Source: Patescibacteria group bacterium
GTDB taxonomy: Bacteria > Patescibacteriota > Patescibacteriia > JAXHNJ01
Direction of reading: 5' to 3'
Length of the DNA: 64,000 bases
NCBI GenBank assembly: GCA_034520665.1
Contig: JAXHNJ010000002.1
Coordinates: 62,230-126,229 of the forward strand
Positions 1 through 12,216 of this stretch are shown here, one piece after another. The notes beneath the pieces were generated by a model, which searched no databases, was not told the DNA's origin, and worked only from the letters and a program-made list of their open reading frames with translations. Every line of letters starts with the position of its first letter. Within the stretch, counting starts at the first letter, position 1. A program made the translations under genes and the position numbers.

Positions 1-607
1 CTATTAAATTCTTCTGATAGTGTAATAATTTTAAAAAATAAGTAAAATTAATAATTATTTTAAAAAATAAATATAAATCTAATTCTTTTATAAAAATTAC
101 TATAGAATTCTTAACTTTACAGGGAATAGTTAAAAAAATAATGCCGTCAGTAACTATATTTTTTTTCATTTTTTCCAATGTAAAAATAGGCCTGTCAAGC
201 GCCCATAATGTATTAAAACACAAAATTAAATCAATATTATTAATATTGGGGAAATTATTATTTAAATTAATATTAAGTGTTTCTATTTTCAAAAAAACAC
301 TATTTTTCCGATAATTATCCTTTAAAGATTCGTTACTATTATCAACAGCATAGACATATAATTTTGATAAATCAAAATTATTATTTTTTAAATTTATTAT
401 GATTTTATTTAATAGTGAACCATTTCCAGAGCCCAAATCCATAATTTTTATTTTCTTCTTTTTAATTCCACTAATTACATTGGTTGCTTCATTTATAACC
501 TCATTAATATATAATTTATACTTACCGTGATTGTAAAATAACTTCTCTTGATACTTTAGATAAGAATACCAATTATCAATTTTATGGGGTTGTGTTTTTT
601 TAAACAT
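1..607 (-). CDS. Class I SAM-dependent methyltransferase, 3'-truncated by window edge
   Basis: My own translation of the minus strand gives MFKKTQPHKIDNWYSYLKYQEKLFYNHGKYKLYINEVINEATNVISGIKKKKIKIMDLGSGNGSL..., with a glycine-rich SAM-binding motif I (DLGSGNG). ATG at 607..605 overlaps the stop of the upstream ORF by 8 nt. The ORF runs off the window start, so it is absent from the ORF track. Confidence 0.5.
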   Translation of the reverse strand, partial: MFKKTQPHKIDNWYSYLKYQEKLFYNHGKYKLYINEVINEATNVISGIKKKKIKIMDLGSGNGSLLNKIIINLKNNNFDLSKLYVYAVDNSNESLKDNYRKNSVFLKIETLNINLNNNFPNINNIDLILCFNTLWALDRPIFTLEKMKKNIVTDGIIFLTIPCKVKNSIVIFIKELDLYLFFKIIINFTYFLKLLHYQKNLI

Positions 608-2123
608 ATTGTAACTTAATAGATTTTTTATTTAATCTTTTTCTATCCATATTCTTAACACAAACCGGATAATAGTCTGCTTTTTTTGAGGCATCAGCAA
701 ATTCTTTGTTTTTATTTTTTAAAACATCAAAAATTGTATTTGCAATTAATAAATTAAGCTTATCCTCTTTTACAACACTACCTAAATTATCTTTTAAATC
801 TATTTCTATTGTAAGTACAGGAGACATCTTATCATTTTTTGAAATATACATAAAAAATACGTTATTGTGTAAATCAGCAATTCTTTTATCTAACAATGCA
901 GACTTAATATTCTCTGTATAAACATTTGCTCCTCTAAAAAAAACAGTGCCGTCACTTCTACCAGCAATATAAATAAAAGGAAGTCTACATAATAATTGGG
1001 TATTTTTCGGCAACTTATTCAAATATTCATTAATATTAAACCCGTAATTATCGAGTAAATTAAACATCTTATCAAAACTTATTACTCCTCCCAAATCATG
1101 AATATTATACCTGATAAGAGGAGAAATGGAACTTGTTGTGGCGATAATCTCATTATTAATTTCCTCAACAAAGAAAAAAAGCGGATTATATTGCAATAGC
1201 ATAGGTCCTGCGTTTTTTAAATTCCCAAAAATATCTTTTGCCAATTTGCCATCTTCCATGCACATTCTTCTTATTTTTATTGATAAAAATGTTTCAGAAG
1301 CAGTCCCCGTCCCAAGTTCTGTTACCCCATAGTTAGAAAATATTTTGGGTATGTTAAAATTCTCTAAATTTATTCCTAGTTTTGAAGCAATATAGTCGCG
1401 CCAATTTTCCGGGAATCCCTCACCCCCAACAACTAAGGAAATAGGCACGCAATTATGAAATCCATTGCTATTTATTTTATCAGCCAAATCTTTAATATAT
1501 GGTGGATAACCAGAAATAATTATATGGTCAAATATTTTCTTAAAATTACTTATCACATCTAATGTAATTTCTATATCTGGCCCGGGATTTATTACAGTTA
1601 ATTTATATTTATCCGAGTAAGCAATTTCACGCATCAATCTTGATAATCTTTCACCACTTGGCCATATTCCATAGGCAAAACAATTAATAAATAATGTTTT
1701 GTGTTTTTTTAATTCGGCCAAATTTAATAATGCAAATTCAAATTGTGATCTAGTCCGATAATCTTCTTCTGGTAATCTAAACCAGTAAGTTGGCTTACCG
1801 GAAAATCCTGAGGTACCCTCGATAGAATGAGATTCACTTATTCTTGGATTAATTGATCTATCAACTAAAGAATATTTATTAATATAATTATGTTTATCTA
1901 TAATTGGTAATTTTTTAAATTCTTGGAAACTGTTTATAGAATATTTTAAATAATCATTTTTTTTTAAAAAGGATCTATAAGCTTTTACATTTTTTATTGC
2001 ATAATTAGCAATCCTAATCGCCCTATTTTCCGATCTTTTATTTATATTTGAAGTTGAAAGAAATTTAATAAATAGATTGCTTACAAGGGGTAAATTATTC
2101 AATTTTGCTATTATGCTCATCAT
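600..2123 (-). CDS. Adenylate-forming enzyme, phenylacetate-CoA ligase (PaaK)/CapK/F390-synthetase-like
   Basis: 507 aa. P-loop-like motif TSGFSGKPTYW near residue 100, as in PaaK-type ANL enzymes. Followed by a hinge and C-terminal domain. Translationally coupled to neighbours (4-nt gap upstream, 8-nt overlap downstream). Confidence 0.55.
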   Translation of the reverse strand: MMSIIAKLNNLPLVSNLFIKFLSTSNINKRSENRAIRIANYAIKNVKAYRSFLKKNDYLKYSINSFQEFKKLPIIDKHNYINKYSLVDRSINPRISESHSIEGTSGFSGKPTYWFRLPEEDYRTRSQFEFALLNLAELKKHKTLFINCFAYGIWPSGERLSRLMREIAYSDKYKLTVINPGPDIEITLDVISNFKKIFDHIIISGYPPYIKDLADKINSNGFHNCVPISLVVGGEGFPENWRDYIASKLGINLENFNIPKIFSNYGVTELGTGTASETFLSIKIRRMCMEDGKLAKDIFGNLKNAGPMLLQYNPLFFFVEEINNEIIATTSSISPLIRYNIHDLGGVISFDKMFNLLDNYGFNINEYLNKLPKNTQLLCRLPFIYIAGRSDGTVFFRGANVYTENIKSALLDKRIADLHNNVFFMYISKNDKMSPVLTIEIDLKDNLGSVVKEDKLNLLIANTIFDVLKNKNKEFADASKKADYYPVCVKNMDRKRLNKKSIKLQYV

Positions 2124-2127
2124 AACA

Positions 2128-2826
2128 TTATATTTTTATCTCTGGAGTTTTTTTTGTCAAATATTTCGAAAAAGCAGGATTCATTTTATTCATATTCTCC
2201 GCCGCTTTATTAATATTTAAACACATAGTAAAAGAGGGGCATTGATGATTAATCTTGCTATAAAAATAAGGACCACTAACTTTTTTAAAACCGAATATAA
2301 GATAACGATCAGTAAAAAGGGTGGATACTGAGATACAAAAATTATTTATTCCGCATTTTTTTGCATAAAGCATAGCCCCCTTAACCAAACCAAAATAAAT
2401 TCTGATATTTTTTCTATAAGTTTTAGATATAATAAATCTACTTAATTCTGCAATATTTTTATTATATTTTCTATATTCTTTCAATGAATAATAACTTTCC
2501 GAAGGAAGTTCTGGATTATATAAATCATTTGGCACAATTCTCATCATACCTATTATTATATTATTTCTATCAATAGCAATAATACTCGCAGTTCCACTTC
2601 GTTTATCAAATTCATCAATTTCTTGTTTTTCTGAATAGTTCTCAGGATTTAAATACCCTTTTTCTAGGCAATAAACTTCGTAACGCAATCTATAAGTTTT
2701 TTTTAATTCATCATCACTACTTGCAATTCTAAACTCTATTATTTCAGTAGAGTTGGATTGAAAAATATACTTAAATAATAAAATCCATTTTATGAAAATT
2801 GCCTTTAGTTTTTTTCTAAAATTCAT
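2128..2826 (-). CDS. GNAT-fold N-acyltransferase, N-acyl amino acid synthase / PEP-CTERM-associated acyltransferase / LuxI-like family (paralog A)
   Basis: 232 aa. Motif YRLRYEVYCLEKGYL followed by a SRF/ELSR-type segment, typical of the Acetyltransf_5 / autoinducer-synthase-like GNATs. Two paralogs lie at 5964..6671 and 9157..9849. Confidence 0.5.
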   Translation of the reverse strand: MNFRKKLKAIFIKWILLFKYIFQSNSTEIIEFRIASSDDELKKTYRLRYEVYCLEKGYLNPENYSEKQEIDEFDKRSGTASIIAIDRNNIIIGMMRIVPNDLYNPELPSESYYSLKEYRKYNKNIAELSRFIISKTYRKNIRIYFGLVKGAMLYAKKCGINNFCISVSTLFTDRYLIFGFKKVSGPYFYSKINHQCPSFTMCLNINKAAENMNKMNPAFSKYLTKKTPEIKI

Positions 2827-2861
2827 TTATTTACTATAAATATTTTACTCACTTCCGACAC

Positions 2862-2895
2862 CTTTCAATTATACCACTATACCACCAAAATCAAA
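2862..2895 (-). promoter_or_regulatory. Sigma-70-like promoter for GNAT-A operon (-35 TTGATT, 15-nt spacer, extended -10 TGgTATAAT)
   Basis: Minus-strand sense tttTTGATTttggtggtatagTGgTATAATtgaaagg lies about 40 nt upstream of the GNAT ATG. The TATAAT box is conserved in all three repeat copies. Confidence 0.4.
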
Positions 2896-3100
2896 AAAAC
2901 TCCAATTTCTCTGGAAGCTAAAAAAGCCCTAATCTAAAAGACTAAAGCCGGTTAATTTAAATTAATTCGTGAAAATAAATTAGTGGTAAAGTCCTGCACC
3001 TGCTGGTACAGCCGGGCGTTTTCTAAAGCTACCGCGGCTTGATTAGAAAGTGTAGAAAGTAGCTCAATATCTTCTTTGGTGTAAGCATCTTTAGAAATTT
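2880..3100 (-). repeat. Conserved ~220 bp element, copy A: 3' end of 7TM-GAF gene + terminator + GNAT promoter
   Basis: About 85-90% nucleotide identity to 6720..6945 and 9890..10105, while the flanking coding sequences are only distantly related at protein level. Confidence 0.7.
2893..2918 (-). terminator. Possible intrinsic terminator of the 7TM-GAF gene (imperfect hairpin GCTTCCAG-agaaa-TTGGAG followed by T7)
   Basis: Hairpin plus a 7-T run immediately 3' of the GAF-gene stop. Conserved in the three repeat copies. The stem is imperfect. Confidence 0.3.
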
Positions 3101-4400
3101 TATGACCTAAGATGAAAAGACCGTTGATTTGATCCTTAACCACAAAAGGTAGAACTATGGATACACCCATTTTTTTTAAAACTTGGGCCTGAGCTAAAAG
3201 CTCCTGGTTTTCTTTTTGCTTTGATCTGGATAATATTTCACCAATCACGACCGGTTTTTTAGTTTCCTCTAAATAGCGACAGAAATGCTGATAAGCACAG
3301 ACCTCTTCCAATTTATTCTTATCAAAACCAAGAATTTTATACAAAGAAAAAGGTTTTTGGCTGTTTCGGTTAGCAATGGCTACGGCTAGATTATCTAGGC
3401 GCATGGCATTTTGAATGGTTTTAATCACAACCTTAACCACCTCATCCAAATTAATAGTTTTAGAAATATTTTTTCCAAATTTTTCTAGAACTTCTTGATA
3501 ATCATAAAGACCAGAAAAGAAGTATTTATTGGCAAATCTTTTTAAAAATTTACTTAAATAATTAAAGCTTAGGAGAAATAAGGGAACAATAATAAGAGCC
3601 GAGAGATAAGAGCCTAAGGCAAAAGGACTTTTGAAGAAAAAATTATCAAACCAAAGAACAAAATAATAAGCGGAAAAAATAAAAAGAGCTAGTCCGACAT
3701 AAATAAATGATTTACGGAGAACAAAGCGGATGTCCATAAGACGGTGCTTAATAATGGAGTATGAAGTAACCCCAATAAAAATTAACATAAATAATGGCGC
3801 ATAAACACTAAAATTAATAATTCCAAACAAAGGTAATATCGCATTAGTTATAATACTAAGAAATGCCGAAATTGATATTCCCCAAAATAAATATTTTATT
3901 TGTTCCCTGAATATACCGCTACTGTTTCTAAACTTTATTAATAGATTTTTAAGAGACAGTCCTACATATATTAAAAAATACGCAATAAAAAAATAATACA
4001 TCACGCCTGGAATAGTTTCAGCACCCCAATCATGAATAATGGTTTCTTTAATATTTAATCTTGTCGGAGTTAATATTATAAAAATAAAAACTGGAATTGC
4101 TAAAATAATAAAATCTTTTTTTGTATATTTTCTTGTTAAATATGGAAAATAATTAGTAAATATCAATAGCAGATAAACTATAAAAATTGGACCAATAATG
4201 GTTAATTTTCCAAAAAATGTTGCAATATCAATATTTTTCGTAGTATCAGCAATAAGCAAAGTAGCTATCCATAAAGAAAGACTAAAAACTAATAATGAGA
4301 ATAATACATTAATAGGATTATTAGATTTTTTCTTATAAATAATAAAACCCAATATAATTGAAATTATTAAACTCGGTAGATATGTAATATATTTTATCAT
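2952..4400 (-). CDS. Polytopic membrane sensor: N-terminal multi-TM (histidine-kinase-type 7TM-like) domain + C-terminal GAF domain, no kinase/output domain
   Basis: 482 aa. About 8 hydrophobic helices in the first 300 aa. C-terminal GAF-like block (LAVAIANRN...LPFVVKDQINGLFILGHK...LSNQAAVALENARLYQQ). Ends without a HisKA/HATPase domain. Confidence 0.5.
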   Translation of the reverse strand: MIKYITYLPSLIISIILGFIIYKKKSNNPINVLFSLLVFSLSLWIATLLIADTTKNIDIATFFGKLTIIGPIFIVYLLLIFTNYFPYLTRKYTKKDFIILAIPVFIFIILTPTRLNIKETIIHDWGAETIPGVMYYFFIAYFLIYVGLSLKNLLIKFRNSSGIFREQIKYLFWGISISAFLSIITNAILPLFGIINFSVYAPLFMLIFIGVTSYSIIKHRLMDIRFVLRKSFIYVGLALFIFSAYYFVLWFDNFFFKSPFALGSYLSALIIVPLFLLSFNYLSKFLKRFANKYFFSGLYDYQEVLEKFGKNISKTINLDEVVKVVIKTIQNAMRLDNLAVAIANRNSQKPFSLYKILGFDKNKLEEVCAYQHFCRYLEETKKPVVIGEILSRSKQKENQELLAQAQVLKKMGVSIVLPFVVKDQINGLFILGHKISKDAYTKEDIELLSTLSNQAAVALENARLYQQVQDFTTNLFSRINLN

Positions 4401-4404
4401 TAGT

Positions 4405-5103
4405 TTAATCCTTTATAGCTATTAACATAATATTTTGACCCGCATAAACAATCTGACTATTAATTACCCTAAAATTATTTTTACTAAATAAACTTATATA
4501 ATCTTTAACGGAAAAAAAATTATAAAATCCCCCTTTTGCTTTTCTATCTATAATTTTATTAAAATACAGCAATATAATATATATTTTTATATTTTTTATA
4601 ATAAAGAATAACCCCCGAAAAAAACCATAATTTTTAAAAAATAACCGACAATCATTCTTAAATATTTTAATATTTTTGAATGATTTAAGTGGATCAGTCA
4701 CCACGATAATACCTCCTTTTTTAATTATTCTATAAAATTCTTTTACAATTAAATGTAAATGCTTTTTTTTAAAAACATACAATGTATTTATGCAGATAAT
4801 TCTATCAAATAAATTATTAGGAAAAAGTAATTTATTGCCTAGGTCTGCATGATATAATTTTGCATTTTTATGTTTTTCATTCAATAACTTCAGGGCTTTT
4901 TTTGAATTATCAATACTATGTACTTCATGGCCCATATCAAGAAGTTTTTTTGAGATTTGACCAGGTCCACATCCAGCATCAAGTATTATGTCTGAATTTC
5001 TGAGTTTTAAATTTTTAACTACTAAATTTAATAATTCATTATACGAGGGAGATAATTCCACAAACTTATTGTATGCCTTGTGATATTTATTCCAGAATTT
5101 CAT
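4405..5103 (-). CDS. Class I SAM-dependent methyltransferase
   Basis: 232 aa. Motif I ILDAGCGPGQ, acidic motif II SIDNS, motif post-I. A 4-nt gap to the downstream 7TM-GAF gene. Confidence 0.6.
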   Translation of the reverse strand: MKFWNKYHKAYNKFVELSPSYNELLNLVVKNLKLRNSDIILDAGCGPGQISKKLLDMGHEVHSIDNSKKALKLLNEKHKNAKLYHADLGNKLLFPNNLFDRIICINTLYVFKKKHLHLIVKEFYRIIKKGGIIVVTDPLKSFKNIKIFKNDCRLFFKNYGFFRGLFFIIKNIKIYIILLYFNKIIDRKAKGGFYNFFSVKDYISLFSKNNFRVINSQIVYAGQNIMLIAIKD

Positions 5104-5177
5104 TATTTTAAAAAATTAAAACTCAAAATTATTAGATTAAGAAGAACGGCGATTATTTGAAAAATTAAATGGCTCAT
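5103..5177 (-). CDS. Candidate 24-aa hydrophobic small ORF (MSHLIFQIIAVLLNLIILSFNFLK), translationally coupled
   Basis: ATG lies 8 nt after the ThiF-A stop. Its TAA overlaps the methyltransferase ATG as TAATG. It is below the ORF-track size cutoff and I found it by manual translation. Confidence 0.25.
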   Translation of the reverse strand: MSHLIFQIIAVLLNLIILSFNFLK

Positions 5178-5184
5178 TTCTTTA

Positions 5185-5952
5185 TTATTTAATAAATTCA
5201 GTTAAATCAATATGATTATATTTAGGGGGAATGTAATTTCTATCGCTAATTATTTTTATAATATTCGTAACTATAAGAGATGAGGTTAAATTTGAAGCAA
5301 CCGCAAGTTGAGGATTAAATTTATTTATCTTTTTAATTAGCTCACTACTTTTATTAATAATATATTCTGGCATTTTTATCATTCCATTTTTATATAAACT
5401 AACAATAAAATCTAATTCACTTTTGGGTTTATTATTTTTTAAAAAATCATCTAAAGGGCCTGTTTTTTTATTAATAGTAATGAGCAAGGCTCCAAATCCT
5501 AAATTCATAGGTATAAAAACAGTTTTATCTTCATCTATAGTTTTATCTATTAATTTATAAAAAATATCATTAAGGTCTAAAGTATTTATAATAAAATCAT
5601 AATTTTTTACTAAGCGTAAGTGATTTGCTTTAAATTCTTTTGAATATGCAGTTATATCAGACGAAGGATTTATTAATTTTATAATACATTCCAAGGATTT
5701 AGCTTTGTTTTTACTTAAAAAATCCAAATTAAATACTTGCCTGTTTAAATTTGAAATTGTAACATTGTCAAAATCAAACAAAGTAAATCTTGCAAATCCC
5801 GTCCTTGTTGCTAATAAGGCAATGTTTCCGCCAAGCCCACAACCAGCAAACATTAAACTTATACTTTTTATCTTTTCTTGCATATCAGAATCAATAAACA
5901 AACAATTTCTGCTAATCATTTCGTTGTAATTGTATTGATATTTGTTTAACAT
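5185..5952 (-). CDS. ThiF/MoeB/HesA-family E1-like adenylyltransferase (paralog A)
   Basis: 255 aa. Rossmann nucleotide motif FAGCGLGGN and the E1 signature ISNLNRQ. Only the adenylation domain is present (no rhodanese domain, no CxxC pairs). Its size resembles TcdA/MccB-core-like enzymes. Confidence 0.6.
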   Translation of the reverse strand: MLNKYQYNYNEMISRNCLFIDSDMQEKIKSISLMFAGCGLGGNIALLATRTGFARFTLFDFDNVTISNLNRQVFNLDFLSKNKAKSLECIIKLINPSSDITAYSKEFKANHLRLVKNYDFIINTLDLNDIFYKLIDKTIDEDKTVFIPMNLGFGALLITINKKTGPLDDFLKNNKPKSELDFIVSLYKNGMIKMPEYIINKSSELIKKINKFNPQLAVASNLTSSLIVTNIIKIISDRNYIPPKYNHIDLTEFIK

Positions 5953-5963
5953 CTTATATTTTT

Positions 5964-6671
5964 TTAAAACTCAAAATTATTTGATTTATAATTATAAAAA
6001 TAGAATAATAATCTATCTTTTTCTTTAACTTCGTCCGCTTTTTTTTTAATGTCAATAAAAAAGGGATAGTTGATGGCATTGAAGCAAAATTTGGGCTCAC
6101 CAATTAATTCAACTTCACCAACATAGTTATCAAGAGTTTTTAGAAACCATTTTTCCGCACAACCGAACCAGAATAAATAATCATTTTGCCTAGAAAAAAG
6201 ATAAATCGCTTTAAACATATCTAGCAAAAGCATTGTCTTCCTATAATCGGGGTGTATCATGAATCTTGATAATTCGGTTATTTTTTCTCGGGGAACATTT
6301 TTTAATCTTTTTACTAAATCAAATTCTTTTTCTGTGGGAAACCCAAGTGGCGAGTTCTTTATTATTCTTGAGGTACCAACAATGTTATTATAACGATCGA
6401 ACGCAATAATATGATCGGCGTATTTATCATATAAATCAGTTTCCTTTTTGTCGGGATACTCTTCTTTATTTAATAAGCCATCAACATTGCAATAAATATT
6501 ATATCTAAATTTATACACGCGCTCCATTAGTTCCTTGTTCTCTTCATCTCTAACAAAAATCAATTTGTATTGTTTATAAGGCCGCCTTAAATGAAACAAT
6601 AAATAAGCGCGCAGTAAAAATATTACTATGGGATTTTTGCTATTTTTTATTTTCTTTGCTGAAAAATTCAT
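5964..6671 (-). CDS. GNAT-fold N-acyltransferase, N-acyl amino acid synthase/LuxI-like (paralog B)
   Basis: 235 aa. Motif YKFRYNIYCNVDGLL and ELSRF. Distant paralog of 2128..2826 and 9157..9849. Confidence 0.5.
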   Translation of the reverse strand: MNFSAKKIKNSKNPIVIFLLRAYLLFHLRRPYKQYKLIFVRDEENKELMERVYKFRYNIYCNVDGLLNKEEYPDKKETDLYDKYADHIIAFDRYNNIVGTSRIIKNSPLGFPTEKEFDLVKRLKNVPREKITELSRFMIHPDYRKTMLLLDMFKAIYLFSRQNDYLFWFGCAEKWFLKTLDNYVGEVELIGEPKFCFNAINYPFFIDIKKKADEVKEKDRLLFYFYNYKSNNFEF

Positions 6672-6719
6672 TATATTACCCTTTGTTCAAATTCTTCTTT
6701 CTTTACCCTGCTTTAATTA

Positions 6720-6945
6720 TACCTAAAAAATTAAAAAAGCTCCAATTTCCCTGGAAGCCAAAAAAGCCCTAATCTAAAAGGTTAAAGCCGGTTGATTTAA
6801 ATTAATTCGTGAAAATAAATTAGTGGTAAAGTCCTGCACTTGCTGGTACAGCCGGGCGTTTTCTAAAGCAATAGAGGCTTGGTTGGTCAGAGAATTAAGA
6901 AGCTGTAGATCTTCTTTAGTTTAGGCATCTTTGGAAATCTTTTCA
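6720..6945 (-). repeat. Conserved ~220 bp element, copy B (GAF 3' end + terminator + promoter)
   Basis: Near-identical to 2880..3100. In this copy the GAF stop TAA is mutated to CAA and an upstream in-frame TAA is present. Confidence 0.7.
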
Positions 6946-8254
6946 CCTAAGACAATAATGCCGATCAATTTATTTTTAATAATCAAAGGCAGACACAAGG
7001 CCGCTTCAATTCTTTTCATATTAGCCTTTAATTTACCGATTTCCGACTTTTCACCCTGCCCATTACTTTTTAAAGACTCCAGTTTTTTGGTAAATAACTG
7101 GTTTTCTTTTTTCTAAAAGATAATTGGTGAGGAAATTATTTCTGACTAGAGAAATGCCGTTAGCTACGGAAAAGCCAATATTGCTCTTAACCTGGTAATT
7201 ATGGGTTTCTTGGTCAAATAATAAAACACCGGTTCGGTCCAGTTTCATGGTGTCTCTAATAGTTTTGACAATGGAAGTCAATGATTTGATCTAAATCAAT
7301 AGAATGAGTCAGTTTCTGGGCCAGTTTTTCCAGAGTAGCCTGGTAGTTGTAAATACTGGCAAAGAAGTATTTGTTGGCAATTCTTTCTAGGTAATTCTTT
7401 AAGGACTCAAAGAGGATTAAGCCGAGCAAAAGGACAATTGGGCCCCAAACACCCGGAGGAATGATTTCCTTGAAATAAGTCATTTCCAGCCAGTAAAGGC
7501 CGAGGGCGAGAAGGATAATTATAATAATGGTGGAAGCATAGATGGCAGTTCTTTTCACGACCAGGCGGATGTCCATGAGGCGGTGGCGGACGATGGCGTA
7601 GGAGGTGAAAACCACGAAAAAAATTATTGACTGAATACCTATATAACTAAATTCTTGAATATTAAATATAGGCAAAATAATGTTAGTTAAAATTGCAATA
7701 ACAGCAGAAATTAATATACCCAAGAAAACATATTTCATTTGCATTCTATGCAACCCTGAACTATTTTTATATTTTATTATTGCTTCGATAAAAGCATAAA
7801 TTATAAATAGAAGGAAATATATAATAAAAAATAAATAAAATGAACCGTAGATAAAATTTGTTCCCCATTCTTGAATATCTACATCTTTTACAATCAAGTT
7901 GGTGTACAGTAAAACTAATAATAATAATGGTACTATATAAATAAATAGTAACTTTTTTTTGGTAATTTCATTTTTATAAAAGGGGAATACGAGACTGAAA
8001 TGGAGTAATATTGCTGGTATTATTATTGGTCCTATAAAAACAATTTTACTTAAACTTAAAGCAATATTCTCATTTATTGCTCTATCTACTAAATAAGTGG
8101 AGAATATCCAAAATCCAATTACAAAAACTAAAAAACCAAAAATAATACTTTCTTTTTTGCCTTTAGATTCATAAAAAACATAAAAACAAAGCAAAAAATT
8201 GAGTAGTAAGATTATCAATGTAATTATTGAAGTAATATCAAATGAAAAATCCAT
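6790..8254 (-). pseudogene. Disrupted paralog of the 7TM-GAF sensor (fragmented into at least three frames)
   Basis: ORF 7256..8254 encodes the intact multi-TM N-terminal region and aligns with 2952..4400 (shared ...HRLMDIR...KYFF...Y.YQ motifs). GAF fragments appear in a different frame (7063..7281). The C-terminal ~50 codons are in a further frame with an internal TAA. Confidence 0.5.
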
Positions 8255-8262
8255 AATTAGTT

Positions 8263-9033
8263 TTATTTATTCGTATAAGCATCAAAAAATATTGGCACTG
8301 GCGCAAAATTAATTTTTACACCTTGAATAAGCTTAATTATTGCTGTTAAAGTAATCGAAGCCACAATATATGATCCAATACAAATTTGCGGATAATACCC
8401 TCTTTTTTTAATTTCTTGAAAAATACTATTAATATTTTTATTTTTTAAAAACGGAAGAGAATACTCTTCTAACGATTTAAATAATTTAATATAAAATTCA
8501 TGATCATTTTTAGGTATGTGATTGCCCCAAATTGATTCAGGCGATGCAGAATGTTTATTAAAAAGCAATAATAATCCTCGAAAACCCAAATTAAAGGGAC
8601 ATAATACAGTTTTATCATTTTTAATAAAATTCGAGATTACTGAAAAATAAATTTTATTAAGATCAACCGTGTTAACTACAAAATCATGTTTTTTTATTAA
8701 ACTTTTCAAAATTTTCTCATTAATATATTTATTTATTACCCTGATATTCGCATTAGAATTAATGTTTATTAAACGTTTTTTTAATCGCTTCGCTTTATTA
8801 TAATTTAAATCATCTAGAATATATGATTGTCTATTTAGATTTGAGATGTTAACTTCATCTCCGTCAGCAATTGTAATATTAGTGAATCCCATTCGAACCG
8901 CCACCTCTGAAATCACACTACCCAAACCACATCCAGCAAAAAGAATGCTAGTTTTTTTTATTTTTTTTTGTAAATTAGAGTCTATATAAATCCAATTTCT
9001 ACTTATAAACGTGTTATAATCAAAATTTTTCAT
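8263..9033 (-). CDS. ThiF/MoeB/HesA-family E1-like adenylyltransferase (paralog B)
   Basis: 256 aa. FAGCGLGS and VNISNLNRQ. About 30-35% identity by eye to 5185..5952. Confidence 0.6.
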   Translation of the reverse strand: MKNFDYNTFISRNWIYIDSNLQKKIKKTSILFAGCGLGSVISEVAVRMGFTNITIADGDEVNISNLNRQSYILDDLNYNKAKRLKKRLININSNANIRVINKYINEKILKSLIKKHDFVVNTVDLNKIYFSVISNFIKNDKTVLCPFNLGFRGLLLLFNKHSASPESIWGNHIPKNDHEFYIKLFKSLEEYSLPFLKNKNINSIFQEIKKRGYYPQICIGSYIVASITLTAIIKLIQGVKINFAPVPIFFDAYTNK

Positions 9034-9156
9034 TTTTTATATTATTGTTGGTTAATTCTTGTTTATCTATTGCATATACTACTCTAAATCCTTGATAAAA
9101 GAAAATGTAAACCTTCATGAATACAAAATATATTTATTCAAAAAAATTATTTATAA

Positions 9157-9849
9157 CTAGTGTATACTATAACTATTCCCTTCACCATTATACTTAATTA
9201 GCCCTTTTTTTAAGTACTTCCATAAGTTTATATTTTCATTTTTAAGGTTTTCTTCCATTTCTGAAATATCTAAAATAAAAGGCGTGGTAATCCCCTGATA
9301 TAATGTCGGCGGACCAATTTTTTTAAAAGGAAAACCAAGTTTAATTAATATGGGGTATAAATTATCATCCATAACGGCAAAAACGTGAGTAATATTCTTT
9401 TCTTTCACAAAAGTGTACATGCCTTTAATCAGGGCGAGAAGGAGAAAATGCTTCCGGTATTTTTTAGCGACAATCAGACGGGATATTTCAGCCAATTTGC
9501 TTCTGTTCTTTTGAAGGATATCAACTTCAATTTTCATGTTTTTCTCTATCGGAAATCCCATTTCTGAGTTTAAAATTAATCTGACCGTGGCGGCTAAATT
9601 TCTAGTTTGTTTTTCTCTTAGTATAAAATGAACTGATTTATCATCATAATTGTCTTTTTCTTTTTTCCCCGGATGTTTATCCTTGTCAATATAACTAAAT
9701 TCCTCGCAAAATACTTCGTAGCGAAGCTTAAAAATTTTTTCTAGTTCAGATTTAGAGTCAGTAGTGTAAAAAATAAACTTATCAGAAAAGCTTCTTTGGA
9801 ACTGCCAAAATTCATAAAATCTTCTTAACTTTTTTATTATTTTTATCAT
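9157..9849 (-). CDS. GNAT-fold N-acyltransferase, N-acyl amino acid synthase/LuxI-like (paralog C)
   Basis: 230 aa. Motif FKLRYEVFCEEFSY and EISRL. Confidence 0.5.
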   Translation of the reverse strand: MIKIIKKLRRFYEFWQFQRSFSDKFIFYTTDSKSELEKIFKLRYEVFCEEFSYIDKDKHPGKKEKDNYDDKSVHFILREKQTRNLAATVRLILNSEMGFPIEKNMKIEVDILQKNRSKLAEISRLIVAKKYRKHFLLLALIKGMYTFVKEKNITHVFAVMDDNLYPILIKLGFPFKKIGPPTLYQGITTPFILDISEMEENLKNENINLWKYLKKGLIKYNGEGNSYSIH

Positions 9850-9889
9850 TTTCTATAACTAGTGCTCACTTCCCTTCTTGTTTTCATTA

Positions 9890-10105
9890 TACCTAAAAAA
9901 TCAAAAAAGCTCTAATTTCTCTGGAAGCCAAAAAAGCCCTAATCTAAAAGGCTAAAGCCGGTTGATTTAAATTAATTCGTGAAAATAAATTAGTAGAAAA
10001 GTCCGGCACCTGCTGGTACAATCGGGTGTTTTCTAAAGCTACCGCCGCTTGATTAGAAAGTGTAGAAAGTAGCTCAATATCTTCTTTGGTGTAGGCGTCT
10101 TTTTT
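9890..10105 (-). repeat. Conserved ~220 bp element, copy C, including a ~135 bp remnant of a 7TM-GAF gene 3' end with no gene body
   Basis: Near-identical to 2880..3100 (closer to copy A than to copy B). Homology stops abruptly at about 10104, some 70 nt before the tRNA-Trp 3' end. Confidence 0.65.
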
Positions 10106-10177
10106 AAGGTTTTGGACCTCTCTTTACGTGAAAGGAGGGGTGGAGACCTACCCCTAATACTAAATATACAGGATTTT

Positions 10178-10252
10178 TGGCAGGGGCACTAGGATTCGAA
10201 CCTAGAATAAGGGTTTTGGAGACCCTTGTGATAGCCATTTCACTATGCCCCC
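10178..10252 (-). tRNA. tRNA-Trp (anticodon CCA)
   Basis: Hand-folded. Acceptor GGGGGCA/TGCCCCT (one G-U). D-arm GTGA-AATGGCTA-TCAC. Anticodon stem AGGGT/ACCCT with loop CTCCAAA. T-arm CTAGG-TTCGAAT-CCTAG. Encoded CCA. 75 nt. Confidence 0.8.
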
Positions 10253-10523
10253 AATAAAAATCCCGCTTATTGTTTTTATAAACCTATTCTTTTTATTAAA
10301 CCTTGATATGAAGAAACTAAATCTCTTTAACTTTTTTTTCCTCTCTTTAGATGCTTCTCTATTATCATAGGCTTCGTAATACTTAAGCTCCAATGGTCGT
10401 CTGTTTTTTGTTGAATACACATCTCCTCTGTAGTAGTCCATCAATCTATTTTTTAAATTTTCAGTTCTGCCAATATATAATCGTTCATCTTTTTTTGCTT
10501 CTTAAAAAATACACATAATACAT
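10202..10523 (-). pseudogene. GIY-YIG nuclease (YhbQ-like) with a -1/+1 frameshift in an A7 run; 3' end overlaps tRNA-Trp
   Basis: N-terminal MYYVYFLRSKK in one frame (ATG 10523..10521). The rest, DERLYIGRTENLKNRLMDYYRGDVYSTKNRRPLELKYYEAYDNREASKERKKKLK, is in the adjacent frame. The shift sits at the homopolymer 10489..10495. No stop occurs before the ORF runs into the tRNA. Confidence 0.5.
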
Positions 10524-10566
10524 AATATTTCTTTCGCACCATCAAAATCTGTCGTTTATATTTAAA

Positions 10567-10722
10567 CTACTTCACTTCCTTATGTAAAGTATGTTTACGG
10601 CACTTTTTACAATGCTTTTTAATGTTGAGCTTCTCTTTTATTTTCTTTTTATTCTTTTTTGAGTAGTAATTTATATTATTACACTCAGTGCATTTAAGTT
10701 TAATCAGATTGTCTTGGGACAT
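10567..10722 (-). CDS. rpmG: 50S ribosomal protein L33
   Basis: 51 aa (below the ORF-track cutoff). [51 protein letters not shown] has the L33 CxxC...Y.T.KN...CxxC..HT pattern. Confidence 0.7.
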
Positions 10723-10759
10723 AATTTTAAGTTAATTTAAGTTAGTTAGTTTAATTAAG

Positions 10760-11131
10760 TTAATTAAGGTTGTTCTGGCTTGATAAATAGTTAATATATT
10801 TATTCAATCCAATCAATAATCCTTCATAATCCTGATCAACTCTTGTAAATTTCTCTAAGTTCAAATATTTCAAGCCTTTAGCTACTCTTAAATGACTCCT
10901 TATTTCAAAAATTTCTCCTCTTGCTTGGTATAAAATTCTAATCTTATCCTTATAAAAATAACGTCCTTGACTTTCAGCAATATTAGCAATAACAGAATTA
11001 GAAGCTCTTTTCAATTGATTAATGAGGGCATATTTTTCAGTATCAGGAAAATTATTTGTTATTTGATAAATACAAAGAACTAATTTATATCCTTTCTGCC
11101 AAATATTTAATTTAAAGAACGCTTTTACCAT
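10760..11131 (-). CDS. Four-helix-bundle protein (23S rRNA intervening-sequence protein / Avd-like family)
   Basis: 123 aa. FKLNIWQKGYKLVLCIYQIT..FPDTEKYALINQLKRASNSVIANIAES.GRYFYKDKIRILYQARGEIFEI matches the conserved IVS-protein pattern (L.VWQKA..L...IY.....FP..E...L..Q..RAA.S...NIAEG..R....D). Confidence 0.6.
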   Translation of the reverse strand: MVKAFFKLNIWQKGYKLVLCIYQITNNFPDTEKYALINQLKRASNSVIANIAESQGRYFYKDKIRILYQARGEIFEIRSHLRVAKGLKYLNLEKFTRVDQDYEGLLIGLNKYINYLSSQNNLN

Positions 11132-11221
11132 AATTCATTTCTTTTCACGCCACCAAAATGTCTTTATTAATATATCGAAATTAACTAAATCAACTTAAGA
11201 AACCTTAACTAACTTAACTTA

Positions 11222-11347
11222 TGGAGCCGAGGAGAGGAATTGAACCCCCAACCTACTGTTTATCCCGAAGTTCTCGAAATTTTGCCATGGAGCCAGCGCC
11301 TCGGGCCCAGAACCGACGACCTACGGTTTACCCGCCTGCCGAACGCC
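11222..11347 (-). other. Two tandem tRNA 3'-end-like fragments (T-arm-like + acceptor 3' strand + TCCA), not foldable as complete tRNAs
   Basis: Each unit (66 and 60 nt) ends ...GGCTCCA like the neighbouring tRNA-Thr genes and contains a GGTTC-type T-loop-like segment. I could not find a matching 5' acceptor strand. Confidence 0.3.
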
Positions 11348-11423
11348 TGGAGCCGGAGGTGGGAGTCGAACCCACGACTTGCTGTTTACAAAACAGCTAC
11401 TCTGACCACTGAGTTACTCCGGC
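11348..11423 (-). tRNA. tRNA-Thr (anticodon TGT)
   Basis: Hand-folded. GCCGGAG/CTCCGGC acceptor. ACTC-AGTGGTCA-GAGT D-arm. GCTGT-TTTGTAA-ACAGC anticodon arm. GTGGG-TTCGACT-CCCAC T-arm. Encoded CCA. 76 nt. Confidence 0.8.
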
Positions 11424-11560
11424 GCCCGGCGACTGGCGGGCAGACAAAACAGTTGTGCCGATAGCCAGAGGCTATCGAACCTTCTCGATTCGCCAAGCGA
11501 ATCGGGACTCTAGCCAACTGAGCTACGCCGGCAAAAGACAGACTGTTTATCAGCTCAAAG
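11424..11560 (-). other. tRNA-like element with canonical 5' start (GCCGGCGTAGCTCAGTTGGCTAGAGT) but two inserted perfect 7-bp hairpins; no canonical cloverleaf
   Basis: It starts like an Ile/Ala-type tRNA. It is then followed by GATTCGC-ttg-GCGAATC and GATAGCC-tctg-GCTATC hairpins and no matching acceptor 3' strand. Confidence 0.3.
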
Positions 11561-11646
11561 TGGTGGGCCGAGTAGGATTCGAACCTACGAAGCCCGAAGG
11601 CGCCAGATTTACAGTCTGGTGCATTTGACCACTCTGCCACCGACCC
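11561..11646 (-). tRNA. tRNA-Tyr (anticodon GTA), type II with long variable arm
   Basis: Hand-folded. GGGTCGG/TCGGCCC acceptor (two G-U). CCAGA-CTGTAAA-TCTGG anticodon arm. Variable hairpin GCC-ttcg-GGC. GTAGG-TTCGAAT-CCTAC T-arm. ACCA end. 86 nt. Confidence 0.8.
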
Positions 11647-11663
11647 ATTACTTTGAGCTGATT

Positions 11664-11915
11664 TTATTTTAAGATACTATTTAGATATTTTCGGCCTTGG
11701 CCAGATTTTAAAAACTTTTCTCTCTTCATTGCCTCTGACCTAGTTTTAAAAATTTCATGATATATTAATTTCCAAGGTTTTCTTCCTTTAGTATACGGGC
11801 ATTTTCCTTGATTATGTTTTTTAATTCTATTATTCAAATTTACAGTTTGACCCGTTTGACCACTTCGGTATCCACCCACTATTGCTTGCCATCTTTTATT
11901 TTTTTTATAATGCAT
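11664..11915 (-). CDS. GIY-YIG nuclease (YhbQ-like)
   Basis: ORF 11664..11969; the likely start is the internal Met (MHYKKNKRWQAIVGGY...). GQTVNLNNRIKKHNQGKCPYTKGRKPWKLIYHEIFKTRSEAMKREKFLK is the conserved GIY-YIG C-terminal pattern. The extreme N-terminal 18 codons of the track ORF read through a duplicated tRNA-Tyr fragment. Confidence 0.55.
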   Translation of the reverse strand: MHYKKNKRWQAIVGGYRSGQTGQTVNLNNRIKKHNQGKCPYTKGRKPWKLIYHEIFKTRSEAMKREKFLKSGQGRKYLNSILK

Positions 11916-11947
11916 TTGCCTGCCCGCCAAAACGGAAGTGAAGGCGG

Positions 11948-11995
11948 GACCACTCTGCCACCGACCCATTACTTTGAGCCGATTTTATTTAAGTG
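11948..11995 (-). repeat. Duplicate of the tRNA-Tyr 5' end plus ~25 nt of its upstream flank
   Basis: ggaccactctgccaccgacccattactttgagc(c/t)gattttatttaag also occurs at 11620..11668. Together the two copies bracket the GIY-YIG gene. Confidence 0.7.
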
Positions 11996-12140
11996 CTAGC
12001 CCACGCGCAGACTTGTCACCCTACGGGTGATCCTCCAAAGGAGGAAACCGCTAATTCTTTGAAAAAGACACAAAATAAGTTCTACTCCTTACCCCCGACA
12101 TTCGTCGGGGCAAGCATGAAGTTGCTCTACCCGCTACCTC
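11990..12140 (-). pseudogene. Degenerate tRNA-Thr(GGT)-like copy with a 22-nt insertion in the anticodon loop, truncated D-arm and no T-arm
   Basis: GGGTAGAGCAACTTCATG[CTTGCCCCGACGAATGTCGGGG]GTAAGGAGTAG equals the intact neighbour (...GGTAGAGCAACTCCATGGTAAGGAGTAG) once the bracketed 22 nt are removed. The downstream sequence forms unrelated hairpins. Confidence 0.35.
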
Positions 12141-12216
12141 TGGAGCCCACCGTCGGATTTGAACCGACGACCTACTCCTTACCATGGAGTTGCTCTACCA
12201 ACTGAGCTAGGTGGGC
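12141..12216 (-). tRNA. tRNA-Thr (anticodon GGT)
   Basis: Hand-folded. GCCCACC/GGTGGGC acceptor. GCTC-AGTTGGTA-GAGC D-arm. ACTCC-ATGGTAA-GGAGT anticodon arm. GTCGG-TTCAAAT-CCGAC T-arm. Encoded CCA. 76 nt. Confidence 0.8.

Follow-up and report, generated by a model that had tools for sequence, protein, structure and literature searches.

A PaaK-Like Adenylating Enzyme in a Tandem Array of FeeM/LuxI-Like Acyltransferase Units with Membrane Sensor Genes from a Patescibacteria Bacterium

Introduction

We have studied a stretch of 64,000 nucleotides from a Patescibacteria bacterium (contig JAXHNJ010000002.1, positions 62,230 to 126,229 of the forward strand), an organism with a tiny genome. The whole of this stretch is referred to here as the window, and positions are counted from its first nucleotide. 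Three tandem units lie at its start, each organized as its own operon. They follow a common plan, in which a FeeM/LuxI-like acyltransferase of the GNAT superfamily is followed by an adenylating enzyme, an optional methyltransferase and a seven-transmembrane (7TM) sensor with a GAF domain. In two of the units (B and C) the adenylating enzyme is a homologue of ThiF. In the third (unit A) the place of ThiF is taken by a PaaK-like protein of the ANL type, encoded on the minus strand at 600–2123.

The initial annotation of this DNA had read the difference as a swap between functionally equivalent enzymes. We find that in other genomes ThiF and the PaaK-like enzyme are usually partners, and are even fused, so that the swap in unit A probably changes the product and is not a like-for-like replacement. 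In our judgment the chances are about even that the array is a set of modular cassettes for the synthesis of small-molecule signals, each with its own receptor, of which unit A is a distinct product line.

Results

The Enzyme of Unit A Has the Motifs and the Predicted Fold of PaaK-Type Ligases

The focal gene encodes a protein of 507 amino acids (506 if translation begins at the second methionine). No Pfam family is matched at E ≤ 0.01. Comparison with the NCBIfam PaaK equivalogs TIGR02155 and NF041878 gave 42.0 and 43.1 bits, far below the curated cut-offs of 646.3 and 700, and identity with the PaaK equivalog was rejected on these scores. The F390 synthetase model TIGR03335 gave 26.8 bits against a cut-off of 458.7. 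Further weak matches to the N-terminal part of the protein, to FlxY and a DVU_1553-family ligase, are also far below cut-off, and there is no LuxE or CapK family among the five NCBIfam matches listed. By Pfam and NCBIfam, then, the protein fits none of F390 synthetase, LuxE or CapK.

The ANL motifs can be located throughout the sequence: A3 (TSGFSGKPT, residues 104–112), A5 (YGVTE, 265–269), A7 (RYNIHD, 338–343), A8 (GRSD, 388–391) and the A10 lysine (K503). In an alignment of 45 homologues D343 of motif A7 and K503 are invariant, while the Ser/Gly residues of the P-loop and R389 are nearly so. An AlphaFold2 model of the protein has a predicted local distance difference test score (pLDDT) of 87.9. 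The Foldseek matches of this model are BT_0428, PaaK1/2, AjiA1, a 'PaaK family AMP-ligase' and the 2-hydroxyisobutyryl-CoA ligase HCL, with E values from 1e-19 to 1e-14. The entries 4r1m, 2y4o and 2y27 are matched at E = 1e-19 with TM scores of 0.6–0.7, compared with about 1e-9 for generic ANL enzymes. A profile of the family compared with the Protein Data Bank (PDB) gave BT_0428 at 1e-27 and PaaK2 at 2e-26.

These structural neighbors (PaaK, BT_0428, HCL and AjiA1) are acid-CoA or acid-ester ligases. The protein has in common with them a two-domain fold and the adenylation motifs, including the A10 lysine, but it is only ~17% identical to PaaK1/2, BT_0428, HCL and AjiA1, is ~70 residues longer and carries an N-terminal helical extension. 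We conclude that it is, by prediction, a PaaK-fold ANL adenylating enzyme that retains all of the catalytic motifs. The placement by profiles thus agrees with the initial annotation in calling the protein PaaK-like. The PaaK-like family to which it belongs is large and has no Pfam model; an exhaustive HMMER search at E ≤ 1e-30 finds at least 1269 representatives of clusters formed at 50% identity.

ThiF and the PaaK-Like Enzyme Are Neighbors and Fusion Partners in Other Genomes

We surveyed the genomic context of the PaaK-like family using the 14 closest sequences as query, and fetched 80 of the resulting 164 loci from GTDB species genomes. Most come from Patescibacteria or Saccharibacteria, and the rest from Actinomycetota/Coriobacteriia, Planctomycetota, Chloroflexia and DPANN archaea. 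A gene on the same strand within 4.5 kb was counted as a neighbor, and neighbors were annotated with profiles built in this analysis. A 7TM and/or kinase sensor lies beside the PaaK-like gene in 47 of the 80 loci. ThiF is found there in 38, being directly adjacent in 28, a methyltransferase in 17 and a GNAT in one. Other recurrent neighbors are nitroreductase-family proteins (11 loci), aromatic amino acid lyases (5), major facilitator superfamily (MFS) transporters (4) and response regulators.

The two adenylating enzymes are moreover fused, and in both orders: PaaK-like followed by ThiF in protein P0224, and ThiF followed by PaaK-like in P0248. Protein P0232 is a triple fusion, in which an amino-acid dehydrogenase of the Glu/Leu/Phe/Val type precedes the PaaK-like and ThiF parts. 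Since ThiF and the PaaK-like enzyme are adjacent or fused in many genomes, at the level of the family they are partners with distinct jobs, and not substitutes.

The nearest relatives of the unit A enzyme (L003 and L013–L017, 43%–45% identity) are encoded in a cassette of PaaK-like gene, methyltransferase and 7TM kinase that lies directly downstream of dnaE. These cassettes contain no GNAT and no ThiF. It follows from the lack of a GNAT that the PaaK-like enzyme does not need the product of a GNAT as its substrate. In a neighbor-joining tree the unit A protein falls within a ThiF-less clade of the family. In L003 the gene after the kinase encodes an aminoacyl-tRNA synthetase of the ThrRS type. 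The dnaE gene upstream of the cassette in L015 (641–3517) bears an intein with a LAGLIDADG endonuclease domain.

The claim that ThiF and ANL enzymes are functionally equivalent is thus not supported, in view of their co-occurrence and adjacency, the fusions in both orders and the GNAT-free nearest relatives. The second part of the initial annotation, that the genes form a conserved biosynthetic neighborhood, stands. The pattern is not due to chance, for unrelated metagenomes and metagenome-assembled genomes (MAGs) show these gene orders again. L001 and L002 have the order GNAT, PaaK-like, methyltransferase and 7TM/GAF/HisKA/HATPase protein, and L004 has methyltransferase, PaaK-like, 7TM kinase and response regulators. 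No paa-operon context occurs in the 80 loci, nor in the sampled orphan loci, whose neighbors were unrelated genes; a standard phenylacetate-CoA ligase set in a paa operon, the finding that would have spoken against a biosynthetic role, is not what the profile scores or the gene contexts show.

Nitroreductase-family genes accompany ThiF and the PaaK-like gene in 11 related cassettes. Operon-like cassettes comprising ThiF, PaaK-like, an aromatic amino acid lyase, a nitroreductase-family protein and a 7TM kinase were observed in L057, L066, L085 and others. In L066 (6784–13697) the genes for ThiF, the PaaK-like enzyme, a phenylalanine ammonia-lyase (PAL), a nitroreductase (NTR) and the 7TM kinase are all on one strand, and are adjacent or overlapping. 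An MFS transporter gene lies between ThiF and the PaaK-like gene in L053, L056, L068 and L075. PaaK-like homologues are also encoded in MAGs of DPANN archaea (Nanoarchaeota and Woesearchaeota; L044, L052 and L072), and that of L044 adjoins a ThiF gene.

The Gene Position behind the GNAT Is Variable

GNAT-A (2128–2826), GNAT-B (5964–6671) and GNAT-C (9157–9849) are the first genes of their units. [quoted passage not shown] All three score above the Pfam cut-offs for FeeM (5e-16 for GNAT-A) and Acetyltransf_5. The Autoind_synth cut-off of 24 is passed by GNAT-A (27.1 bits) and GNAT-C (36.1 bits), and GNAT-B has no match to this family. The PEP-CTERM/exosortase-associated acyltransferase model TIGR03694 (cut-off 111.95) is passed by GNAT-C at 165.8 bits, and failed by GNAT-A (85.1) and GNAT-B (89.9). 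In a tree of the GNATs, built like that of the PaaK-like proteins, GNAT-A clusters with that of L001, where a PaaK-like gene likewise comes next, and the nearest relative of GNAT-B is the GNAT of L010, which is also followed by ThiF.

A second survey started from the clade of GNAT-C and covered JGI metagenomes; there is some redundancy among the loci that were fetched. Behind the GNAT lies ThiF in 11 fetched loci, corresponding to eight distinct ones, a PaaK-like gene in three (L093, L099 and L113) and a methyltransferase in two (L106 and L110). In most of the GNAT-anchored loci a 7TM-GAF(-kinase) gene comes next. The occupant can differ between sister GNATs that are ~50% identical: L098 has ThiF where L099 has a PaaK-like gene, and L109 has ThiF where L106 has a methyltransferase. 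ThiF together with a PaaK-like gene was found in none of the surveyed GNAT loci. The alternation suspected from the window alone thus recurs in other genomes, and there is real, though thin, support, as judged from gene order, for a swappable position behind the GNAT. The absence of loci with both enzymes concerns only four or five evaluable loci with GNAT and PaaK-like gene; the probability of finding none is ~0.04–0.08 at a ThiF background of 47%, and the loci are not independent.

Two further features were seen in these loci. Many metagenomic cassettes have between GNAT and ThiF a gene for a conserved membrane protein of ~160 amino acids, apparently with four hydrophobic segments and with the motifs GESLLI... 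and GPLPTS (L094:7679–8155, L102:6750–7244, L104:515–1012, L105:7627–8103 and L107:7672–8166). It is absent from the units of the window. Just upstream of the GNAT some loci have two to four tandem short genes (~220 amino acids) that resemble the 7TM region of the sensors (L097:3442–6940, L110:4860–6933, L103 and L107). These could be sensor fragments, decoys or membrane components.

The ThiF Homologues of Units B and C

ThiF-B (5185–5952, 255 amino acids; Pfam ThiF 1e-27) is a stand-alone ThiF/E1-like adenylyltransferase. It lies in the middle unit, and is the protein that had initially been named ThiF-A. ThiF-C (8263–9033, 256 amino acids; Pfam ThiF 9e-30) is likewise a stand-alone ThiF-like adenylyltransferase, and is 40% identical to ThiF-B. 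The best PDB match of ThiF-B is AclA (9egc/9egb, 4.6e-21), compared with 7e-7 for MoeB. ThiF-C matches 9egc, AclA of Tenacibaculum discolor, over its full length at 5.7e-33, with Foldseek TM scores of 0.76–0.78. Among solved structures AclA (9EGB/9EGC/9EGD) is thus the nearest homologue of the window ThiFs; MoeB, ThiF and MccB are far more distant. Like the window ThiFs, AclA is a stand-alone protein, of ~260 amino acids. The PDB title of the AclA entries, released in 2025-08, reads 'in complex with substrate', and the substrate could inform what the window ThiFs act on.

Close relatives of the window ThiFs are few, and occur in four arrangements. In L010 the ThiF gene stands behind a GNAT; in the others it precedes a PaaK-like gene (L007), a GH3-family ANL gene matching the OlsH model (L011), or a methyltransferase and a sensor (L008). 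GNAT and ThiF can also be fused, as in protein P0122 and in the NCBIfam model PRK14852, which is matched by GNAT-A and by the window ThiFs.

The combination of ThiF, methyltransferase, GNAT and MFS transporter with a tiny precursor would suit a microcin-C-like or other peptide that is made on the ribosome and modified after translation (RiPP). We rejected this possibility, as there is no convincing short open reading frame (ORF) in the gaps; moreover the window ThiFs, at 255 amino acids, seem too short for an N-terminal peptide-clamp domain of the MccB type.

Organization of the Array, Methyltransferases and Sensors

All of the genes in positions 1–9849 are on the minus strand, in DNA of low GC content (23%–33%), and every ORF named in the initial annotation is genuine and correctly placed there. 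Unit A comprises GNAT-A, the PaaK-like gene and, from 607 past the window edge, the methyltransferase MT-A, followed by a sensor. Unit B has GNAT-B, ThiF-B, MT-B (4405–5103) and sensor B (2952–4400), and unit C has GNAT-C, ThiF-C and a 7TM sensor that begins at 8254. Genes within the units are tightly spaced or overlap, with intergenic gaps of 4–125 nt, and a terminator scan and alignment reveal a terminator-like hairpin and a conserved upstream region at each junction between units. The paralogues of the different units are old and only distantly related (27%–30% identity for the GNATs, 31% for the methyltransferases and 34%–43% for the sensors).

Both methyltransferases of the initial annotation are borne out by Pfam models of class-I S-adenosylmethionine (SAM) methyltransferases. 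The window contains the first 202 of the 243 codons of MT-A (1–607), a gene that begins before the PaaK-like gene has ended; it matches Methyltransf_31 (31.5 against a cut-off of 27), _12 and _23. The Logan contig L006, which is identical to the window edge, extends MT-A to 243 amino acids and adds a fourth gene to the unit, a 7TM sensor that is 43% identical to sensor B. MT-B lies between ThiF-B and sensor B, and passes Pfam Methyltransf_25, _11, _31 and _23. Its best NCBIfam matches, a DVU_1556-family methyltransferase, CpaM and BioC, are all below their cut-offs, the first of them far below.

Sensor B, the last gene of its unit, encodes 482 amino acids with a HisKA_7TM membrane domain (Pfam, 1.4e-14) and a GAF domain (1.2e-9), without a kinase domain. 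It aligns with the NCBIfam model of PrsK (TIGR02916) over ~440 residues, spanning the multi-transmembrane and GAF regions, at 6.5e-14 and 51.4 bits against a cut-off of 300. Relatives of sensor B that do carry HisKA and HATPase_c are found in L001, L004 and many survey loci. Truncated proteins and full-length 7TM-GAF-HisKA-HATPase proteins occur side by side in related genomes, as in L001, where two are truncated and one is a kinase of 959 amino acids. Sensor C (6790–8254) is a 7TM+GAF gene whose coding sequence is scattered over three or more frames and whose GAF part is interrupted by an in-frame TAA. The ORF 7256–8254 has the HisKA_7TM domain, and GAF fragments at 7063–7281 and 6924–7112 are in other frames. 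The local GC content of 0.325 is above that of the neighboring units. Either sensor C is a pseudogene or the assembly is in error here. The sensor is the constant element of these cassettes, and each of the units ends in one, a feature that the initial annotation had missed.

A Repeat at the Unit Junctions and the End of the Array

The junctions contain a repeat of ~215 nt, present in three copies on the minus strand that are 86%–92% identical over 213–216 nt, compared with protein identities of 27%–43% for the flanking genes. Copy A (2860–3090) takes in the final ~43 codons of sensor B, together with a terminator-like hairpin (2925–2949) and an AT-rich region as far as GGTATAAT upstream of GNAT-A. 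Copy B (6718–6930) overlaps the disrupted sensor C in its 3′ part and also takes in DNA upstream of GNAT-B; over 213 nt its identity with copy A is 86%. Copy C (9885–10100) consists of the 3′ remnant of an orphan sensor and a terminator/promoter region, and is 92% identical to copy A over 216 nt. Elsewhere the fetched loci give weak matches at the coding level and a partial match of 78% in L092; strong copies are present only in the window. The repeat looks like a site of recombination or gene conversion, or may serve the units as a common regulatory region. Exchange or deletion of cassettes within the array could proceed through it.

Copy C lies between a tRNA-Trp gene (10178–10252) and GNAT-C, and the homology begins downstream of the tRNA. 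From the orphan sensor remnant in this region (9885–10252) we deduce that the array ends at a cluster of tRNA genes (Trp, Thr, Tyr and Thr; 10178–12216). In L092, a 93%-identical relative, more of a sensor gene (at least ~260 codons) is present upstream of the GNAT, suggesting that the window has lost an upstream unit by deletion. A direct repeat of 43 nt, 98% identical between 11627–11669 and 11948–11990, was also noted beside tRNA-Tyr and inside a small ORF (11664–11969). It may be a duplicated tRNA fragment.

Discussion

If the array is indeed made up of modular signal cassettes, the likely chemistry differs between the units. In units B and C the GNAT would make an N-acyl amino acid, whose carboxylate would be adenylated by the ThiF homologue and cyclized to an oxazolone-type product. 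The desaturation step catalyzed by a nitroreductase would be missing, and no nitroreductase/FDO homologue is present anywhere within the 64-kb window. In unit A the substrate adenylated by the PaaK-family enzyme would be a carboxylic acid in its free form, probably an aryl or a short-chain one, and CoA may serve as acceptor. The activated acid would then provide the acyl group, whether by transfer to the GNAT or by direct ligation to an amine, and the methyltransferase would cap a product that had undergone no cyclization by ThiF. Each product would be sensed as a ligand by the 7TM-GAF protein of its unit.

Most likely, to judge from the genes with which its family is linked, the PaaK-like enzyme of unit A activates an acyl acid for the GNAT, or alongside it. 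We favor acid activation because of the linkage of the family to aromatic amino acid lyases (PAL/TAL) and an amino-acid dehydrogenase, the GNAT-free sister clade, the partnership and fusion with ThiF, and the acid ligases that are its structural neighbors. The PAL/TAL linkage points to simple aryl acids as substrates for the family, and the cassettes of the PAL/NTR type suggest oxazolone-type products with an aryl-acyl group (cinnamoyl or coumaroyl), made without a GNAT. It is more likely that the swap behind the GNAT generates chemical diversity than that it preserves one pathway.

Several observations weigh against the interpretation of the array as signal cassettes with unit A as a product line of its own. 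The window contains no histidine-kinase transmitter domain (HisKA with HATPase_c) and no response regulator, and the gene for sensor C is disrupted. Units B and C are without an acid-activating enzyme, so that their GNATs evidently obtain acyl donors without one. The alternation within the GNAT-C clade, in which ThiF and PaaK-like enzymes are not found together, fits a position reserved for a second step on the carboxylate at least as well. In addition, the loci of the context survey are phylogenetically non-independent, and the trees of the PaaK-like proteins and the GNATs are neighbor-joining trees without support values.

That second-step role is the core of the original proposal, in which the PaaK-like enzyme stands in for ThiF as a non-orthologous replacement, acting after the GNAT and followed by methylation. 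We consider it unlikely, despite the evidence of the variable position. Taking the window and individual loci together with the survey, the gene behind the GNAT is ThiF (eight distinct loci, units B and C, and L010), PaaK-like (three loci, unit A and L001) or a methyltransferase (two loci), and never ThiF with PaaK-like; the ThiF/PaaK-like switch separates sister GNATs such as those of L098 and L099, and all three kinds of enzyme can modify a carboxylate. In the family tree, moreover, the GNAT-linked PaaK-like proteins belong to the part without ThiF, so that a divergence of function is conceivable. A replacement is nevertheless hard to reconcile with two enzymes that occur together in 38 of 80 loci, 28 times as direct neighbors, and are fused in either order. 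Relatives of the window ThiFs adjoin PaaK-like or GH3 ANL enzymes where there is no GNAT at all (L007 and L011), and the closest PaaK-like relatives, having no GNAT beside them, cannot act on its product. The strict alternation is drawn from the four or five non-independent loci noted above.

A different view of the products, to which we give a slightly lower probability than to the replacement of ThiF, is that they are antimicrobial or membrane-active N-acyl amino acids or aminolipids, with the 7TM-GAF proteins acting as regulators, immunity factors or transport components. Synthases of the FeeM type were first found via antibiotic N-acyl tyrosines, and in M. tuberculosis the tyrazolones and tryptazolones are regarded as lipids. 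The GNATs also match models of the ornithine-lipid N-acyltransferase OlsB (E values from 1e-7 to 7e-12), and the ANL gene beside ThiF in L011 matches the model of the lyso-ornithine-lipid synthetase OlsH. Against this, there is one paralogous sensor to each synthase unit, the sensors diverge in step with the enzymes (34%–43% compared with 27%–40% identity), and related cassettes hold full-length kinases with response regulators. Several divergent units fit channels of different specificity better than the bulk synthesis of a lipid. That the PaaK-like protein is an ordinary phenylacetate-CoA ligase or other catabolic ligase, placed next to a GNAT by chance, is in our view highly improbable, even though many homologues are annotated as 'phenylacetate-CoA ligase (family protein)' and the best structural matches include PaaK1/2. 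The equivalog scores of 42–43 bits against cut-offs of 646–700, the lack of a Pfam match, the tight or overlapping operon genes, a linkage that is kept across phyla, and the absence of paa genes from the sampled orphan loci all argue the other way.

The reading of the array as signal cassettes can be extended to a broader proposal, which we put forward as a tentative one that is more likely to be wrong than right. The units may belong to a widespread and unrecognized family of cell-cell or cell-host signaling systems, with combinatorial enzymes, cognate 7TM-GAF receptor kinases and tandem private channels that diversify at the junction repeat. The enzyme set may include a FeeM-like GNAT, a PaaK-like ligase, a ThiF cyclase, a methyltransferase, a nitroreductase and PAL/TAL, and the autoinducers may be acyl or aryl-acyl amino acid derivatives (oxazolone-type, methyl-ester or related). 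Cassettes of this kind occur in Patescibacteria and in Saccharibacteria, and PaaK-like homologues extend to DPANN archaea and several further phyla.

What N-acyl amino acids and acyl-oxazolones do for the bacteria that make them is treated as an open question in their discovery papers. Here each unit ties the same enzyme logic to a membrane sensor of its own, and the organisms concerned have tiny genomes and are believed to live attached to hosts. This leads to the testable proposal that such metabolites are signals with identifiable receptors; if it is true, oxazolones and N-acyl amino acids gain a long-missing role and a receptor. The analysis also defines a family of PaaK-like ligases by its conserved partners (ThiF, methyltransferase and 7TM kinase), and corrects the tempting inference that ThiF and ANL enzymes are interchangeable. 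The wider family of cassettes and its linkage to sensors is a more valuable lead than the swap in unit A itself.

Comparison with Known Systems

The chemistry of GNAT plus ThiF, published for acyl-oxazolones and N-acyl-dehydrotyrosines, and the adjacency of LuxI homologues and kinases in the Candidate Phyla Radiation (CPR), are known already; unit A is a variant that uses an enzyme of the PaaK type. OxzA, TyzA and TrzA are described as N-acyltransferases similar to FeeM and acyl-homoserine lactone (AHL) synthases, which use acyl-CoA and an L-amino acid, and TyzA and OxzA are called FeeM/BjaI-like. A ThiF homologue (the protein TyzB, or in OxzB and TrzS the N-terminal domain) is reported to cyclize the N-acyl amino acid with ATP, and an oxidase of the nitroreductase superfamily to desaturate the cyclized product to give acyl-oxazolones. 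The discoverers of this pathway give its biological role as unknown, and suggest signaling.

Compared by gene type, OxzAB of Pseudoalteromonas rubra, TyzABC, and TrzA/TrzS of M. tuberculosis have GNAT then ThiF, as do units B and C. The shared chemical logic proposed in the initial annotation can therefore be kept in part: acylation followed by ATP-dependent activation and cyclization of the carboxylate is published for OxzAB and TyzABC, and would be common to units B and C in a MAG of a Patescibacteria host, whereas the idea that ThiF and ANL enzymes do the same job is not upheld. The oxz, tyz and trz clusters have a nitroreductase, which the window lacks, and have a ThiF homologue where unit A has the PaaK-like ANL enzyme and no ThiF. 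Each unit of the window has a dedicated 7TM-GAF sensor gene, and none is described for the oxz, tyz and trz clusters in the available text. In Stieleria the stieleriacine clusters have a synthase of N-acyl amino acids (NasY), a methyltransferase, ThiF and a nitroreductase, and so correspond to unit B plus the oxidase. PaaK catabolic ligases differ from the PaaK-like family in context, since the latter is accompanied by sensors, ThiF and methyltransferases and never by paa catabolic genes. The system defined by TIGR03694 and PrsK is approached only by GNAT-C, which passes the TIGR03694 cut-off where GNAT-A and GNAT-B fail; sensor B is far below the PrsK cut-off and lacks the kinase. No exosortase or PEP-CTERM genes were noticed, no search having been aimed at them.

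The placement of a synthase of the LuxI/FeeM superfamily beside a polytopic membrane sensor has precedents in LuxM/LuxN and in the CPR. Bernard et al. (2020; PMC7567580) describe 18 LuxI homologues of the CPR beside sensory kinases as candidate quorum-sensing systems, with no mention of ThiF or ANL genes. The receptors of the window are HisKA_7TM+GAF proteins without a kinase module, which is present in relatives, and are neither LuxR nor LuxN. Unlike the LuxI and LuxM systems, the units have ThiF or a PaaK-like enzyme and methyltransferases between synthase and sensor. [quoted passage not shown]

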